Shown here one piece after another: positions 4,919 through 57,148 of a stretch of DNA of 64,000 nucleotides (within the stretch, counting starts at the first letter, position 1; the number at the start of each line of letters is the position of its first letter). The DNA lies in NCBI RefSeq assembly GCF_000026545.1, contig NC_011601.1. One strand, written 5' to 3'. The DNA is from Escherichia coli O127:H6 str. E2348/69. Its GTDB lineage: Bacteria > Pseudomonadota > Gammaproteobacteria > Enterobacterales > Enterobacteriaceae. Under the pieces are notes generated by a model. The model was given only the letters and a program-made list of their open reading frames with translations, did no database searches and was not told the origin of the DNA. The position numbers and the translations under genes were made by a program.

Positions 4919-5956
4919 TCATCTGAAATCCGTCAGTTGAACAACCGTCTCACGCGTAAGACGTTGAATAAGGGCAGATAAAAGTTGCTGCATCTGCAAA
5001 ATGTCACGGCAATCGGCAATCGATGCGGCGCAATGTCCGTGGCGGGTGGCAGGCCCCATCACCACTGTGGGTACGCCAGTGCCGGTTAAGTGCACCGCCC
5101 CACCGTCCGTGCCACCGTTGCTGAACATATCCGCCTGCAACGGCACGCCAATTTCTGCCGCCACGGTTTCGATCCAGGCGGTAAGTTTTGGCGGCGCAAT
5201 CAGCGATTTATCGCTTAACACCAGCATCGGCCCGTTACCAATCTGACGATGGTTAGCCGCGCCATAATCAAAGTTTTTCGCCCAGCAGGCGGTATCAAGC
5301 ACAATGGCGACGTCCGGCGACACCGCGCGGGTGGCAGTTTGCCCACCGCGTAATCCCACCTCTTCGCTGGAACTTGCCACCAGCCACACCTCCGCAGGCA
5401 GTTCGGCGTCGTGCAGCTCACGTAGTAACGTCACCAGCAGATAGCAACCGAGGCGATCATCAAAGGCTTTCCCCATCACCCGCTGGTGAGGGAGAACCTG
5501 AAAAGTTGTATCAAAGGTGACGCGATCGCCTGGACGAATTCCCGCCTGCATCACTTCGTCATACGAGCGCGCACCAATGTCCACGCGCATGGTGCTGACG
5601 TCATTCCCCTGCCGGTCGCCGTCAAGCAGGCCGGGAATTTTGCACTCTTCACGGGTAGTGATACGCACCGACTGAAGCTGGCGGGCAGCCATGCGTACAT
5701 TGCCAACCGGCAACACATCGATCGCCCCTTCGCGGGAGATGCTGCGCACCATAAATCCCACTTCGTCCATATGCGCACAGATCATCACCTTCGGACCTGT
5801 CGACTCATTGAGTCGGATCAGCACCGATCCCAGCCCATCAAATCGCACTTCTTTTTGCAGGCGATCCGCTTCTTCCAGCAGGATCTGCCGTACTTCCTGT
5901 TCCGAGGAGGCGATCGCATCTGCCTCGCTCAACGCTTTTAATAACGATAAATCCAT
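4919..5956 (-). CDS. ypdE: M42-family aminopeptidase YpdE
   Basis: 345-aa ORF, syntenic with the fry cluster. Has M42 peptidase-like metal-ligand regions ([17 protein letters not shown]). Confidence 0.9.
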
Positions 5957-7041
5957 TATGCCTCTCCCGTGAGCAACACTGTTTTCGGCATGGCGTAGAG
6001 CACTTCTGCGCCTTGCGGGGTGACCAGCACAACATCTTCGATGCGCACGCCCCCTTGCCCTGGCAAATAAATCCCCGGCTCCACGGTCAGTAACATGCCT
6101 GGCTGTAGCGTCGTGGTGTCCCGCGGTGAAAAACGCGGATCTTCATGAACTTCAATGCCGATAGCATGACCGGTGTTATGACCGAAATAGTCGCCATAAC
6201 CTGCTGCTGTAATCACCCGGCGCGCGGCATCGTCAACCTGCTGGCAGCGCACGCCGGGGCGAATTACAGAGATTGCCGCGAGCTGTGCCTGCAGGACAAT
6301 CTGATAGACGTTAAACAGCGGGTGAGATTCGGCGCTCACCCCTTCGCCATTCACCAGCAAGGTGCGCGTCATATCAGAGCAGTAGCCCTGATAGAGCGCA
6401 CCGAAATCGAGAGTGACAAACTCGCCCGCTGTAACAATCTTGTCGCTGGCTTTGCCGTGCGGCAGCGCCCCACGCCAGCCGCTGGCGACAATGGTATCGA
6501 AAGAGGCTTTTTCTGCGCCCTGCTGGCGCATAAACCACTCCAGTTCAGCGGCTATCTCGCGCTCGCTCATCCCCGCCTGAATAAAGCGGCGAATATGCTC
6601 AGCACCGCGATCGGCAATCCCACAGGCGAGGCGGATTTTCTCCACCTCCTCTGGCGTTTTGATTTGCCGCAACACATCCGGCGTGGCGCTAACCAGTTTC
6701 GCATTGAGTTCGGACTGCCAGCGGTGCGCGGTTTCCCAACTCACCTGCTGGCCTTCAAAACCGAGCGTTTGCAACTGCTCATCGGCAATGATTTGTCTGA
6801 CGATGGTGGCAAGCGTGTGCATCGCGTCGAGCAAATGCAGCTGGTAACCTTGCGTGCGGGCTTCTACATCCGCGTAATAGCGCGAATCCACCAGAATGTG
6901 CGCACTTTCACGGCTAATCACCACATAACCTGATCCGGTGGAGATCCCCAGATGCGGCTGTTTGTTCTGCCGTGAGGAGAGAAGCACCGCATCCAGTTGT
7001 TGTGCCTTAAGCCAGTCACGCAGCGAAGCGAGTAATGTCAT
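5956..7041 (-). CDS. ypdF: Xaa-Pro aminopeptidase YpdF (M24 family)
   Basis: 361-aa ORF with M24 motifs ([24 protein letters not shown]). Start and stop overlap with ypdE. Confidence 0.9.
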
Positions 7042-7055
7042 CAGGATTGTCCTTC

Positions 7056-8303
7056 TTACAGGCTATCGATTAACAATTTACCTTTGCGGAACATCATCAG
7101 ACGCAAGAACACCACCATCAGCGCAGTAATGATTGCTCCCAGCGCAATCCCCGCCATATAGACACCCAGATTAGTGACCAGCGGCCACGCCCAGATAGCG
7201 GATTCCGGGAACCATTGCACTGCGCCCAGCCAGACTGCGGCGGTTGAGCCGACAATCGCGCCAACCATATAGGACGGAATGGCGGTGATAGGGCTTTCCA
7301 GTGCAAACGGAATCGCACCCTCACTGATCCCCATAAAGGCAAGGAACATCGCGGTCTTACCCTGCGGATAAAGTTGAGCGTTGAACAGACGTTTGCCGGT
7401 TAAACGACGGTCAATAATGGTTGCCAGACCCAGACCAATCGGCGGAATAACGATAGCGATAGAACGTGCGGTGACCGGTAATACGTGGTCAGTGGTAAAG
7501 CTGAAGGCAACGAAACCTGCCGCTTTGTTGATCGGGCCACCAAGGTCGATTGCTGTCGCCGCGGCGATCCCCATTGCGTACATCAGCGCGCCCTTCTCAC
7601 CTGCTGCGGTTAGCACGGTACGGATACCGCCGTTGATCCAGCCACCAAAGGGGGTGATGACGTAGTACATCGCCAGCATGACAAAAATGGCGGAAAGAAT
7701 CGGTAGCAAAAATGTGGTTTTGAACGCTAACAGGAAATCCGGTAACTGGATTTTCTGGTTCATCCACTTCACGAGGTAACCCGCAACGATAGATATAATC
7801 AGCGCACCAATGAAGGTGGACGGCACCGGCGAAGAGGTCGCCCATTGCATAATGCTGGGATCGAAGTTCAGCAGTTGCGTCGGCTGGGTAGACATCAAGC
7901 CGCCGATAAAACCAGCCGGGAACGCCAGTTTGCCACCGATAGAGTTCGCCACAAAAGCAGCAAACATCGGAATGGCAAAACCAAACAACACGCCACCGAA
8001 GGACTGCGACAGCCAGGCAAATTTAAGTAAGGAGAGGTCGAAACCGGAGAATTTCCCGCTATTAAGAGCATCCATGATGCCGATATCAGCAGGAATTTTA
8101 AGCCAGCTATAAGCAATCAGCTGACTGAAAGCGAGGATCACACCGCCCATAATTAAGGTCGGCACCATGCGTGAAATCCCTGACATCACATGCTGCGGGA
8201 GTTCACCCCAGAAGCTGGATTTAGAGGCCTGCGGATTCTTAACTGCCGCTGCCGCACCGGATGCGCCATGCACAACGGTTGCACTGCGTTTTTTAATGGC
8301 CAT
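7056..8303 (-). CDS. fryC: PTS fructose-like enzyme IIC component FryC
   Basis: 415-aa polytopic membrane ORF in the fry cluster. Confidence 0.9.
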
Positions 8304-8324
8304 AACAATTATCCCTGTCGAATA

Positions 8325-8651
8325 TTACTGTTGTTCAGAGGCAATCATCTCTTCGATTTCTTTGATGATTCCTGCAGCGTTTTTAATTGCGTCCTGCAAA
8401 GTGATTTCATAAACGTCGCGTGATTCGAAACGCTCGTTATCTTCCGGGGTAACTGCCACGGAGTGGATGATGATGGCCGCTTCGGCGATATCCTACGCCG
8501 TCAGGCGATTCTGGATACCGTCCGCGCCCTGGGTTTCAATTTTCACTTCATAACCGGCTTCTACCGCCGCTTCTTCCAGCGCCTGAGCGGCCATAAAAGT
8601 GTGAGCCAGGCCCATTGGGCAGGCACATAAGGCAATCAGTTTCTTACTCAT
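8325..8651 (-). pseudogene. fryB: PTS fructose-like IIB component FryB, interrupted by an in-frame TAG at codon 53
   Basis: [19 protein letters not shown]... reads 52 codons and then TAG (plus-strand cta at 8493..8495). The same frame continues open for 55 more codons (DIAEAAIIIHSVAV...EEMIASEQQ) to TAA at 8325..8327. Together this gives the full 108-codon IIB length. Confidence 0.8.
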
Positions 8652-8822
8652 CGTTAATTCCTCGTTCAGTGATAGTTGACGAGTGAAATTATGAACGTGC
8701 AAAACAAATCGCCGTTACCAGACAAATAATGCATTTACTGGAGAATTAATCCCGCTGTACGGAAGTGTGACGCAGGTCGGCCTTGTGAGGGGACACAAAG
8801 AAAAATTTAATTAACTGTATGA

Positions 8823-8856
8823 TTTAAAAGATTATCGGGAGAGTTACCTCCCGATA
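8823..8856 (-). terminator. Probable rho-independent terminator downstream of glk
   Basis: Inverted repeat atcgggag/ctcccgat, followed on the minus strand by a T-rich run. Confidence 0.5.
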
Positions 8857-8869
8857 TAACAGGAAGGAT

Positions 8870-9835
8870 TTAGAGAATGTGACCTAAGGTCTGGCGTAAA
8901 TGTGCACCGGAACCGAGAAGACCCGGATTGTCATGGACGATGAGATATACCGGAATATCATGGACATATTCCTTAAAGCGCCCTTTATCTTCAAATGCGG
9001 CGCGGAAACCAGAGGCTTTGAAGAACTCAAGGAAGCGCGGCACGATACCGCCCGCAATAAACACGCCGCCAAATGTCCCGAGATTGAGCGCCAGATTGCC
9101 GCCAAAACGGCCCATAATGACGCAAAACAGCGACAACGCGCGGCGGCAATCGGTGCAGCTGTCAGCCAGCGCGCGTTCGGTAATATCTTTTGGCTTGAGA
9201 TTTTCTGGCAGGCGGTTGTCGGCTTTAACAATTGCGCGATACAAATTCACCAGCCCAGGGCCAGAAAGCACGCGTTCCGCCGAAACATGACCAATTTCCG
9301 CACGCAATATTTCGAGGATAATGCCCTCTTCTTCACTATTCGGCGCAAAATCAACGTGACCGCCTTCTCCTGGCAAGCTTACCCAACGCTTATCGACATG
9401 GACCAGATGCGCAACCCCAAGCCCTGTTCCGGCACCGTAAACCGCAATAGGCTTACCTTCTACCGGTTCTGCGCCACCAAACTGAATCAGATGCTCTTTT
9501 TTCAGCATCGGGATCGCCATCGATACAGCAGTAAAATCGTTAATAATTTCCAGATGGCTAAAACCGAGATTCTTTTTCATTTCGGCAATTGAGAACGCCC
9601 AGGTATGGTTGGTCATTGCCACCCAGTCACCGGTAATTGGGCAAGCGATGGCAATACAGCCGTCTTTCACCTCGACCTTATGTTCTTCAAGATAAACGCG
9701 AATGACCGCTTCGAGGCTGGGATAATCAAGCCCTGAATAGGTCTTAGCCTGCGAGATTTCACCACTGGCAATATCACACAGAGCAAGACGTGCGTTGGTG
9801 CCGCCCACATCACCGACTAATGCATACTTTGTCAT
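8870..9835 (-). CDS. glk: Glucokinase
   Basis: 321-aa ORF beginning [20 protein letters not shown] (ROK/glucokinase ATP-binding motif). K-12 length and synteny. Confidence 0.95.
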
Positions 9836-51311: not shown

Positions 51312-51983
51312 ATGAAAACCACCCTCCCCCTCATCGCCAGCATCTCTGTTGATGAACAGAAAAACAGATTGATCGAATGCTTCCGGGAATATTGGGGCGT
51401 ACAGCAGATTAACGACCGCCATGACAACATTGCACTCCGCGTAGGCAAAGGTAAACATGGTTGCCACTTTATCTGGTCAGAAAAAAATATCGATATTCAT
51501 TATTACTGTGACCGTGAAATGTCGCCTCAGGAATGGTCAAAGATCGTGACGGTGATGACCGTCGCGCTGGATACCCCCATACCGCCCTATTATCTTGATA
51601 GAGATGAGAAAAGACATCGCACCACTTTGCGGAAAACACATCGCCGGGGAGACAATAGTATTGGATGTTTTATCTACCCCTACAAAGAAGAGGCAAATGG
51701 TGGGTGGGATTATAATGTTGAAAGTCTTTTCATTTACGAATGCGATTTCACGATACTGGCGGCAGGCATTAAGGCGTGCTATCCGCTCAATAATGGTGAA
51801 CGCGCGTTTGATTATACGAGCTGGAATGAATTTACCGTTGCTGAATGTGAGAGAATAATTTCGTCCTGGCTGGATGCAGGGCAAGAAAATGAGAGCTACA
51901 CGCCATTCATTCAATACGTGGTTGAATGGATGCAGCCCCTTATGCGGGAATATGACACGATTATGATTGAAGGTAATCTCTAA
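51312..51983 (+). CDS. Hypothetical protein (223 aa), no recognisable domain
   Basis: Uninterrupted ORF 43 bp after hemF. Cys/His/Trp/Tyr-rich, with no signal peptide or TM segment. Its stop codon overlaps the stop of the convergent helicase gene. Confidence 0.55.
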   Translation: MKTTLPLIASISVDEQKNRLIECFREYWGVQQINDRHDNIALRVGKGKHGCHFIWSEKNIDIHYYCDREMSPQEWSKIVTVMTVALDTPIPPYYLDRDEKRHRTTLRKTHRRGDNSIGCFIYPYKEEANGGWDYNVESLFIYECDFTILAAGIKACYPLNNGERAFDYTSWNEFTVAECERIISSWLDAGQENESYTPFIQYVVEWMQPLMREYDTIMIEGNL

Positions 51984-55512: not shown

Positions 55513-56790
55513 ATGGAGCAACCTCCAATGAGCGAACGCCTCGCCTGTAAAAACCCTGATTGCTCAAACCGTATTCTGCCACAAACCGCAGCGCGCACCG
55601 GTGGGTTTTGTATGCCCTGCATTCAGGCCCAACAGCAGCGTGAACGCGATGAATATATCAGGAAAAATAAAAAGACCGTGAATGCGTTTGCAGGGTTAAG
55701 CGATCCGGTTGCCATGCTGAAATTAGTTCACCAACCGCGAAAATTCGATGCGTTAATCGATTGGACTCCCTCCCCCATTCGCACCGATGCCCTGTATCAA
55801 CAACTGACCGCCGATCAAGCGCAGCAGATAGCTGATTACGCCACAGAACGCTTTGTATCTGGTGAATATAAGCTCGCTCAGGAGATTTGGCTTTGTCTGG
55901 CGGCATTTACCCAGGCCAATCTGGATGCGTATTTCAGAGAATGGATCTCTTACGATGATTTAGACAGTTATTCTTACATGCCTTTCCACCGCGCCCCTGT
56001 GGATGTTCGCGATACGCTGTTAGAACGGGTTGAGGTTGATGCAGACAACAGAAACTGTATTCTGCAATGTCTGGCATGGATTGGGGATGACGTTGTTGTT
56101 GAGCATTTTTCCCGCTGGCGTCTTAACCCGCCGTCGTGGCGCAGTTCACTTTACATCGCGCCAGAAGAATATGCGCATGAGGCCGGTTGGGAGCTAACCG
56201 TTGAAGGGCAAAGGCGTAATCTCTATTTTCCTCAATGTTTTCATCTGGAGATGAAAAACACCGGGTGTTGCGAAGCTTTGCGTGTTGTTGATGAACGCAG
56301 CGAAACCTGTCCAAATTGCGCATTGCCACTAACAGATCTTTTCGACGTTGACCTGAAGGCAACGGGTCTTAGCGATAACGGCAGGTTTCGCGTCGTGACT
56401 TGTGAATGTTGCACCGCCTACAGCACCATTTTTGGTTACATAGACTCACGGGGTAATGCTCATTTGTCTGCAAAAAATATCCCGCCAGCCTGGCTGCCGG
56501 ATGATGTATCTGAATGGCGTCGGTTACCTGTAAACAGCATGAGACGGGGAAACCTTCGACCACCGTTATTCGCCGCAGACCAATTTTTACCTGTCTCTTT
56601 CTCGCAACTTGGCGGGCATCCAACCTGGATTCAGGACGCGGAATATCCTCTCTGCCCGGAATGCTCCCGCTCAATGACGTTTCTTGCGCAACTGGATTAT
56701 GCCGATATTGAACAATACGGCGAAGGGATAATTTACGCGTTTATCTGCCCGGAGTGCCGGACAACAGCGACGTCTTATCAGCAATCTTAG
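55513..56790 (+). CDS. DUF1963 (YwqG-like) domain protein with three CxxC-type zinc-ribbon pairs
   Basis: 425 aa (the start could be 55513 or the ATG at 55528). The C-terminus GGHPTWIQDAEYPLCPECSRSMTFLAQL...FICPEC matches the YwqG/DUF1963 C-terminal signature as I remember it. Extra Cys pairs at aa 12-36 and 266-300. Divergent from the helicase gene. Confidence 0.6.
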   Translation: MEQPPMSERLACKNPDCSNRILPQTAARTGGFCMPCIQAQQQRERDEYIRKNKKTVNAFAGLSDPVAMLKLVHQPRKFDALIDWTPSPIRTDALYQQLTADQAQQIADYATERFVSGEYKLAQEIWLCLAAFTQANLDAYFREWISYDDLDSYSYMPFHRAPVDVRDTLLERVEVDADNRNCILQCLAWIGDDVVVEHFSRWRLNPPSWRSSLYIAPEEYAHEAGWELTVEGQRRNLYFPQCFHLEMKNTGCCEALRVVDERSETCPNCALPLTDLFDVDLKATGLSDNGRFRVVTCECCTAYSTIFGYIDSRGNAHLSAKNIPPAWLPDDVSEWRRLPVNSMRRGNLRPPLFAADQFLPVSFSQLGGHPTWIQDAEYPLCPECSRSMTFLAQLDYADIEQYGEGIIYAFICPECRTTATSYQQS

Positions 56791-56830: not shown

Positions 56831-57148
56831 ATGTCAGACACATCACATAAAGAAAGTAAATGGCACCCTCATCTGGATATGAGTTTTCTGGGATGCGTGC
56901 TGGCATTTGCTATGGAAGTTTATTTTGAAGAACACATTTTTATTCCCCACGGTGGAGGAGCAAGTTTTGGATTGATAGCACTCATCGTTATTAATTTTAT
57001 GACTATCCCGATAGTGATCGTGGTAACAACACTATTTTGTTATTTATTTGAAATTTCGCGAAAGCGTGTAAATCGTATTTTGATATTCCTGTTGGCATGT
57101 ATTTTGACTATTATCGGTTTGTTTATCGCATATCCCGTCGGGCAATAA
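56831..57148 (+). CDS. Small integral membrane protein (105 aa, about 3 predicted TM helices), unknown function
   Basis: Strongly AT-rich ORF 40 bp after the DUF1963 gene, with ggag upstream of the ATG. Hydrophobic stretches: FLGCVLAFAMEVYF, FGLIALIVINFMTIPIVIVVTTLFCYLF, ILIFLLACILTIIGLFIAYPV. Confidence 0.55.
   Translation: MSDTSHKESKWHPHLDMSFLGCVLAFAMEVYFEEHIFIPHGGGASFGLIALIVINFMTIPIVIVVTTLFCYLFEISRKRVNRILIFLLACILTIIGLFIAYPVGQ

Follow-up and report, generated by a model that had tools for sequence, protein, structure and literature searches.

The TYPP superfamily was established in 2014 by Burroughs and Aravind, who united DUF1963/YwqG with TSR4, PDCD2 and PDCD2L (PMC4275035). Its defining features are a pair of repeats, the GGxP motif, one highly conserved glutamine and sporadic CxxC pairs in both repeats (PMC4275035). 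In the bacterial 'family two', most members display an uncharacterised N-terminal alpha-helical domain, and several of them have an additional N-terminal C4 finger of the dksA/traR type (PMC4275035). PDCD2 and Tsr4 are dedicated chaperones of the ribosomal protein uS5. PDCD2 loses uS5 binding when its TYPP motifs are mutated, while Tsr4 reads a disordered N-terminus (PMC7736825). It was proposed in the same study that TYPP domains hold disordered segments and that bacterial members have other clients; the N-terminal extension of uS5 is specific to eukaryotes and not present in bacteria (PMC7736825). A second set of described systems concerns bacterial conflicts. Among the immunity proteins of polymorphic toxin systems, the prototypic superfamilies are SUKH and SuFu, and heterogeneous polyimmunity loci are toxin-free, co-directional and variable arrays of unrelated immunity genes (PMC3113570, PMC3482391). 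In the present work, a gene located between hemF and eutR was analysed in a stretch of 64,000 nucleotides from Escherichia coli O127:H6 str. E2348/69 (contig NC_011601.1), hereafter the window; sequence comparison matched it to this strain with 100% identity. The analysis showed that its product is a stand-alone cytoplasmic protein of the TYPP superfamily, belonging to the bacterial subgroup with an N-terminal helical domain and often a C4 finger. It also showed that the adjacency to a divergent SNF2 helicase gene is the result of an insertion.

The open reading frame of 425 codons at 55513-56790 on the plus strand was confirmed. The start annotated in RefSeq by the Prokaryotic Genome Annotation Pipeline (PGAP) is at 55528, which gives a protein of 420 amino acids (aa), WP_000003978.1. 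Since GGAG is found 9 nt before the ATG at 55528 and all aligned orthologues start at the matching methionine, this position is likely to be the gene start, rather than the longest-frame start at 55513. Residues are numbered on the 420-aa protein throughout. A preliminary description of the window, made from the sequence alone, had placed the cysteine codons at the correct nucleotides, but its residue numbers are five too high for this protein.

An alignment of 24 homologues (39-88% identity) was used, with sequences from Enterobacteriaceae, Betaproteobacteria (Chitinimonas), Planctomycetes, Acidobacteria, a metagenome-assembled genome (MAG) of the candidate phylum Paceibacterota, and Firmicutes (Paenibacillus). 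Three cysteine clusters are present in the window protein: C7/C12...C28/C31, C261/C264...C292/C295 and C376/C379...C407/C410. Eleven of these twelve core cysteines are invariant in the alignment and C410 is conserved in at least 90%. The three zinc-ribbon-like clusters noticed earlier are thus real, while an additional cysteine that had been counted with them (C299, here C294) is variable. The retention of four ligands per cluster, in sequences from at least six phyla, is far beyond chance, and the three Cys4 clusters are predicted to bind zinc. The signature GGHPTWIQ...CPxC...FLAQL...CxxC was also found where it had been described and is almost invariant (G362, G363, P365, W367, Q369, D370, Q388). 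The second repeat ends with a conserved C-terminal YQQ[ST]. In every full-length aligned member the C-terminus reads Y-Q-[QC]-[ST] and has no extension (56776-56787 of the window, aa 417-420), which suggests that the free C-terminal tail may have a role in this family.

The AlphaFold2 model built on the alignment reached a mean predicted local distance difference test score of 92.6 and a predicted template modelling score of 0.86. In this model, the finger and a long helix (aa 1-47) lead through a short alpha/beta linker into a stretch of eight helices (aa 95-217), after which an all-beta region (aa 221-418) follows. Four modules were delimited: the C4 finger, the linker, a HEAT-like arm (aa ~95-217) and a two-repeat TYPP domain (aa ~218-420). 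The extension of aa 40-260, previously left unassigned, consists mostly of the HEAT-like helical repeat domain.

The earlier assignment to DUF1963 (PF09234) was correct, as the Pfam match lies above threshold (25.6 bits for a gathering cut-off of 23), but it was too narrow, since only aa 359-406 are matched, to positions 1-51 of the 216 of the profile. The same holds for the family: DUF1963 matches were obtained in 24 out of 24 members, all of them weak (best E-value 7.7e-7). When the profile of aa 212-345 was compared with that of aa 346-420, both CxxC...CxxC units came in register (P 6e-4). Comparison of the family profile with canonical YwqG-like proteins by hhalign gave a probability of 93% and an E-value of 2.5e-7, with GGHP aligned to GGxP and FLAQ to FLAQ. 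In total, 162 residues of YwqG were aligned with the window protein, at 11% identity; as YwqG is all-beta, these residues should fall within aa ~218-420. The register of the repeats and the hhalign result together indicate that the Pfam match is a cross-repeat one, in which the second repeat of the family is paired with repeat 1 of YwqG, and therefore that the real domain is the complete two-repeat unit. It extends over aa ~218-420, and the middle and C-terminal cysteine clusters correspond to each other as metal sites, one in each of its repeats. The middle cluster is part of this domain and not the separate elaboration for which it had been taken. Two homologous all-beta repeats with the fold of YwqG (1PV5) are thus present in the window protein. 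Q388 is invariant within M-x-F-[LI]-[AG]-Q, aligns with the FLAQ of YwqG-like proteins and is probably located at the base of the pocket of the second repeat.

YwqG of B. subtilis and the window protein have the GGxP...FLAQ motif in common. In contrast to the window protein, YwqG consists of a single domain (~260 aa) and lacks cysteine clusters, and the three Cys4 sites, the HEAT-like domain and the finger have no counterpart in it. Canonical YwqG proteins (~250-300 aa, single domain) match DUF1963 in full length, as seen for the true YwqG-like proteins encoded in the gene neighbourhoods described below (profile positions 1-213, E-value 2e-36); the window protein, with 420 aa and 51 of 216 profile positions, is not of this type. 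With PDCD2, Tsr4 and PDCD2L it has in common the superfamily and CxxC-like motifs in both repeats. PDCD2 also has an extra zinc module, a MYND domain instead of the C4 finger, but the module of the window protein is N-terminal and not inserted between the repeats. Moreover, PDCD2 is essential, whereas the bacterial protein is an accessory one with a patchy distribution. The PDCD2_C signature of Pfam was not matched at E <= 1 by the window protein or by 24 relatives. The earlier statement that DUF1963 has no known activity is dated, given the TYPP unification (PMC4275035) and the chaperoning of uS5 by PDCD2/Tsr4 (PMC7736825). Client binding through the TYPP domain, as in the latter two proteins, is the best mechanistic analogue for the bacterial protein.

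The architecture of the window protein appears to be that of TYPP 'family two', a match made through the published description and not through the family lists of the authors. Both are bacterial and narrowly distributed, and both combine the two-repeat TYPP domain, GGxP, the conserved glutamine and CxxC pairs in both repeats with an N-terminal helical domain and, in some members, a C4 finger. In contrast to the present analysis, the helical domain was not termed HEAT-like in that paper and no context of SuFu/SUKH arrays was reported. An exhaustive profile search returned 528 cluster representatives at E <= 1e-30. Many of them begin at profile position ~85-90, so that the finger is missing and the helical and TYPP core is kept, in agreement with the published description; others have a different extension of ~165 aa. 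The dksA/traR label was not reproduced for the finger of the window protein. The finger region of eight orthologues did not match any Pfam zinc-finger family above threshold, zf-dskA_traR included, and only sub-threshold, inconsistent matches to A20, CGNR and WRKY19 were obtained. The finger and its helix (C-x4-C-x15-C-x2-C, 55546-55640, aa 7-38) show a resemblance to the zinc finger of the C-terminal domain of Pol alpha (1N5G, 4Y97) which is not significant (E-value 0.078).

The TYPP gene is carried by 28 of 5,426 complete E. coli genomes and is missing from 99.5% of them. Among 185,579 species genomes, 224 pattern-matched stretches with relatives were found. Gene neighbourhoods were surveyed in 80 homologous loci from different other species, with up to 10 kb on each side; neighbours were counted as homology clusters, of which one representative each was scanned against Pfam. 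No gene family accompanies TYPP across phyla, the commonest neighbour cluster within four genes occurring in 12 of the 80 loci, all from closely related Paenibacillus. The neighbours recorded were DUF6138 (14), SUFU (11), TPR+SUKH (SMI1/KNR4; 8), YwqG-like DUF1963 (8) and a 224-aa protein without Pfam match (8). Loci of the SUFU/SUKH/DUF6138 type belong to Paenibacillus, Lysinibacillus and Sporosarcina and, for the SUKH protein, also to Micromonospora. In 16 such loci, DUF6138, SUKH, DUF1963, DUF4274, SUFU, TPR and Ank are the commonest families within 4.5 kb. One Paenibacillus locus (L040) contains ten co-directional genes in the order unknown-SUFU-unknown-unknown-TYPP-YwqG-like-unknown-ADP-ribosylglycohydrolase-DUF4274-YwqG-like, followed by a TPR+SUKH gene on the opposite strand. 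Co-directional, tightly spaced arrays of immunity-family genes without toxins were found in at least 15 of the 80 loci, all Gram-positive, a count uncorrected for shared ancestry and background frequency. One MAG (P0107, locus L042) encodes a DUF2625-TYPP fusion, of which the DUF2625 part is weakly SUKH-like, and DUF2625 genes lie directly upstream of TYPP in three more loci.

Some further features of these Bacillales loci were recorded. A conserved block (L040 5342-17014; L051 4806-16165) comprises SUFU, a protein of ~755 aa, a protein of ~224-233 aa and TYPP, with genes for YwqG-like, ADP-ribosylglycohydrolase, DUF4274 and TPR+SUKH proteins nearby. The ~755-aa and ~224-aa proteins upstream of TYPP gave no match in Pfam or in sequence searches of the PDB. 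In two Paenibacillus loci, proteins of ~1,660 aa are encoded within 4.5 kb downstream of TYPP (L081 14916-19913; L049 13450-18438); the L081 copy, the only one scanned, contains DUF5724, DUF4132 and DUF7737. Literature searches on DUF6138, DUF2625 and DUF5724 returned nothing, and DUF4274 was mentioned only in passing in two unrelated papers.

The Bacillales context resembles SUKH/SuFu polyimmunity loci in several respects. TYPP is found there in toxin-free co-directional arrays together with SuFu, SUKH, Ank and ADP-ribosylglycohydrolase, one TYPP protein is fused to a SUKH-like domain, and the TYPP superfamily also has eukaryotic members which were recruited as adaptors or chaperones. The difference is that the folds of SUKH and SuFu are unrelated to TYPP and that TYPP has no known cognate toxin. 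The TYPP protein is probably a stoichiometric binder of proteins or peptides, without catalytic activity. By analogy with the family, the three Cys4 sites would hold structural, non-catalytic zinc bracing the loops, and the beta-domain would take up an extended or disordered segment of the partner in its pocket and cleft. The helical arm and the finger may provide further contact surfaces, and the partner would be encoded elsewhere in the genome. As for its nature, the leading guess from gene context is a toxin or some other protein that is foreign or harmful, against which TYPP would act as an orphan immunity protein. This guess is based on the Bacillales arrays of SuFu, SUKH, ADP-ribosylglycohydrolase and YwqG-like genes and on the DUF2625 fusion; this context supports, without proving, a toxin-binding, immunity-like role, and the patchy distribution was also counted in its favour. 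The explanation as a whole, namely TYPP identity, a non-catalytic binder, the immunity-like guess and independence from the helicase, may well be right and may equally be wrong. A bolder version is doubtful and was retained as speculation: family-two TYPP proteins, and by extension the YwqG-like DUF1963 proteins, would form an unrecognised class of zinc-braced, immunity-type proteins which neutralise a widespread interbacterial or phage-borne toxin, the copies in E. coli and Salmonella being orphan immunity genes and PDCD2/Tsr4 descending from bacterial conflict proteins. If true, the origin of PDCD2/Tsr4 would parallel the history proposed for SUKH and SuFu.

Several observations weigh against this explanation. 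With regard to the domain identity, the window protein has only a marginal Pfam match over part of the profile, a Foldseek search of the PDB gave no match, and 1PV5 was missed by PDB sequence searches, whether the query was the single protein or the family profile. The immunity-like context is confined to ~15-20 Gram-positive loci, some of which have a common ancestry, so that the counts are not independent. Neither in the window nor in the proteobacterial, planctomycete and acidobacterial loci do immunity or toxin genes adjoin TYPP, and the copies of E. coli, Salmonella and other Gram-negatives are singletons without arrays. No adjacent toxin gene was seen in any locus, as judged from the 25 commonest neighbour families and without a systematic toxin search. 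The E. coli and Paenibacillus proteins are ~40% identical over 420 aa, which is unusually high for an immunity protein, typical ones being far less conserved in sequence, and the gene is apparently stable at one chromosomal site in Salmonella. Such conservation and stability would fit a conserved endogenous partner better. Finally, the TYPP protein is not among the Imm families given in the part of PMC3482391 that was available. A conserved GGxP motif is likewise present in the immunity family Imm27 (PMC3482391), which may be a candidate relative, Pfam giving no Imm27 match at E <= 1.

An endogenous partner is the core of the first alternative, in which the protein is a dedicated chaperone or adaptor for a bacterial protein, like PDCD2/Tsr4 for uS5. 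It would capture the disordered segment of one client, possibly co-translationally, and keep this client soluble until assembly. Client binding by PDCD2 needs motifs of the same superfamily (GGxP, CxxC-like and the glutamine), full-length conservation across phyla is very high, suggesting a conserved partner, and synteny is stable in Salmonella, Klebsiella, Yokenella, Phytobacter and Escherichia. However, the gene is missing from nearly all complete E. coli genomes and from the vast majority of species, so that a universal client is excluded, no conserved neighbour gene indicates a client, and bacteria lack the uS5 extension that serves for recognition in eukaryotes (PMC7736825). A chaperone role is possible, though somewhat unlikely. 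The finger has also been considered as the functional centre, docking on RNA polymerase or on DNA/RNA while the remainder would be a regulatory or sensor domain. The family-two finger was termed dksA/traR-type, a class that binds RNA polymerase (PMC4275035), the finger region is highly conserved (C7...C31, ILPxTAARTGG) and the weak similarity to Pol alpha points in the same direction. These arguments are opposed by the failure of eight orthologues to match any Pfam zinc finger, by the many members in which the core persists without a finger, which makes the finger an accessory, and by the absence of a helix-turn-helix (HTH) or other known nucleic-acid-binding domain; such a regulator is quite improbable. 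Even less credit was given to an enzyme which would modify a peptide or a small molecule in the TYPP pocket with the invariant glutamine, maybe together with one zinc site. Many invariant polar residues surround the pocket motif (W367, Q369, D370, Y373, Q388 and N317), and Burroughs and Aravind mentioned catalysis as the 'more radical' option, but according to the same authors catalysis by a lone conserved glutamine is without precedent (PMC4275035). Four cysteines make up each of the three metal sites, as is usual for structural rather than catalytic zinc, and the eukaryotic TYPP members studied are binders, so an enzymatic role looks very unlikely.

The remaining alternative goes back to the preliminary description, in which the gene was paired with the divergent SWIM-SNF2 helicase, the pairing being thought possibly recurrent as in ywqA/ywqG, and a genome-context survey was suggested. 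In this reading, the TYPP protein would be a functional partner of the helicase, as its loader, regulator or sensor. The two genes are indeed divergent in the window with a spacer of 98 bp, the helicase is next to TYPP in all eight complete E. coli genomes which have this helicase, and SNF2 helicases of this type resemble the defence helicases ZorD and DpdE, here in the motor domain only. The survey, when run for this family, did not reveal any association with SNF2 or SWIM. By tblastn, neither the helicase nor its 223-aa companion had a homologue within 10 kb in any of the 80 loci, and no SNF2 or SWIM family appeared in the Pfam surveys of the immediate TYPP neighbours. The helicase is also missing in 20 of the 28 E. 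coli carriers and in Salmonella. Conversely, the nearest helicase outside E. coli (81% identity), found in another enterobacterium (L086), lies in the same gap in the order eutR-helicase-223 aa-ypfK-hemF (module at 5001-9245) with nothing but a TYPP remnant of 55 aa. In Xenorhabdus, Cupriavidus and Acidithiobacillus, the genes around helicase homologues of 53% identity are unrelated and do not include TYPP; thus, none of the four helicase homologues examined has an intact TYPP neighbour. The co-occurrence in eight out of eight E. coli genomes is explained by the helicase entering, once or a few times, a gap that already contained the TYPP gene. In B. subtilis, the tkmA-ptkA-ptpZ-ugd operon presumably separates ywqA from ywqG, which was also counted against a partnership. 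NCBIfam and PADLOC searches gave no match for the TYPP protein, for which PADLOC has no model; it fits neither a known defence-system model nor a helicase-associated module. As TYPP occurs without the helicase and the helicase without intact TYPP, the comparison of loci shows the adjacency to be an insertion accident and not a functional pair; for this family a recurrent link is refuted, and a partnership is hardly credible. For DUF1963 in general, a metagenome scan seeded with YwqG-like proteins found no SNF2 gene in 10 mostly short loci, too few for statistics.

The gene comparisons show that the helicase and the 223-aa protein form a separate module, which was inserted beside the resident TYPP gene in a few E. 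coli lineages. Both genes are convergent and their 3' ends overlap by 4 nt; the 223-aa protein had no match in Pfam, NCBIfam or PADLOC. Besides the 81%-identical copy, the closest full-length relatives of the helicase (50-55% identity) are mostly from Betaproteobacteria and Acidithiobacillus, which points to acquisition by horizontal transfer. The remnant in L086 is a 67-aa open reading frame next to hemF (9584-9748), corresponding to aa 1-55 of TYPP at 62% identity, and indicates that the TYPP gene was deleted in a genome which kept the helicase module.

With respect to what was known, RefSeq already annotates the protein as DUF1963-containing, and the superfamily and its architecture were described computationally in 2014. 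The only new element, a modest lead, is the polyimmunity-like context in Bacillales. The domain map is corrected by the finger, the HEAT-like arm and the full two-repeat TYPP domain with one predicted zinc site per repeat (Table 1). Since the TYPP gene is ancestral in a variable gap, its adjacency to the helicase should not be over-read as a defence system. The Bacillales arrays with SuFu, SUKH and ADP-ribosylglycohydrolase offer a testable lead on the role of bacterial TYPP proteins, and genetically tractable hosts for following it are Salmonella and enteropathogenic E. coli.

Table 1. Features of the TYPP gene and its neighbours in the window
Feature	Position	Strand	Basis
TYPP-family protein gene, 420 aa, WP_000003978.1	55528..56790	+	PGAP start, GGAG, orthologue Met
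N-terminal C4 zinc finger (C7, C12, C28, C31; predicted) and long helix, aa 1-47	55528..55668	+	invariant Cys, model
HEAT-like alpha-helical repeat domain, ~aa 95-217	55810..56178	+	
TYPP repeat 1, ~aa 218-345: invariant G220-W221-E222, predicted zinc site C261/C264...C292/C295	56179..56562	+	
TYPP repeat 2, ~aa 346-420: GGHP 362-365, Q388, predicted zinc site C376/C379...C407/C410	56563..56787	+	
105-aa YpfK-family membrane protein	56831..57148	+	56% identity to Salmonella YpfK
SWIM/DUF3670/SNF2/Helicase_C protein, 1,149 aa	51980..55429	-	Pfam; divergent from TYPP gene
223-aa protein, travels with helicase	51312..51983	+	56% identical copy beside 81%-identical helicase in L086

The gene order in E2348/69 is hemF, the 223-aa hypothetical protein (+), the 1,149-aa SNF2-related protein (-), TYPP (+), the 105-aa hypothetical protein (+) and eutR (-). 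In Salmonella the order is hemF-ypfK-TYPP-eutR, without helicase, and in Superficieibacter, Phytobacter, Klebsiella, Yokenella and E. albertii the TYPP gene is directly preceded by amiA-hemF. These arrangements show that the TYPP gene has long resided between hemF and eutR in Enterobacteriaceae. The YpfK-family gene resides in the gap together with TYPP in 25 of the 28 E. coli carriers. It is located 3' of TYPP in E. coli and 5' of TYPP in Salmonella (L084 4543-4872), and the gap has therefore been rearranged. In the other, helicase-less E. coli carriers, either the order is hemF-TYPP-ypfK-eutR or the helicase is replaced by a TacA/GNAT toxin-antitoxin pair. The latter was seen in E. coli E7-1N7, where the TacA antitoxin and GNAT toxin genes (L003 3390-4182) occupy the position of the helicase module of E2348/69, so the spacer between hemF and TYPP behaves as an insertion hotspot. 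Promoters and terminators predicted around the TYPP gene did not exceed the expectation from shuffled sequence, and literature searches on STM2452/STM2453 and on guessed E2348C locus tags found nothing relevant. Further downstream, eutC is present in the window as a 3' fragment only (59507-59944), with its N-terminus annotated as missing. Just past this fragment follow two HTH genes and a Mu-type transposase gene at 61313-63355, the whole region spanning 59507-63355. Because these genes abut the truncated eutC, a Mu-like transposable element appears to have inserted in eutC and disrupted the eut operon of E2348/69.

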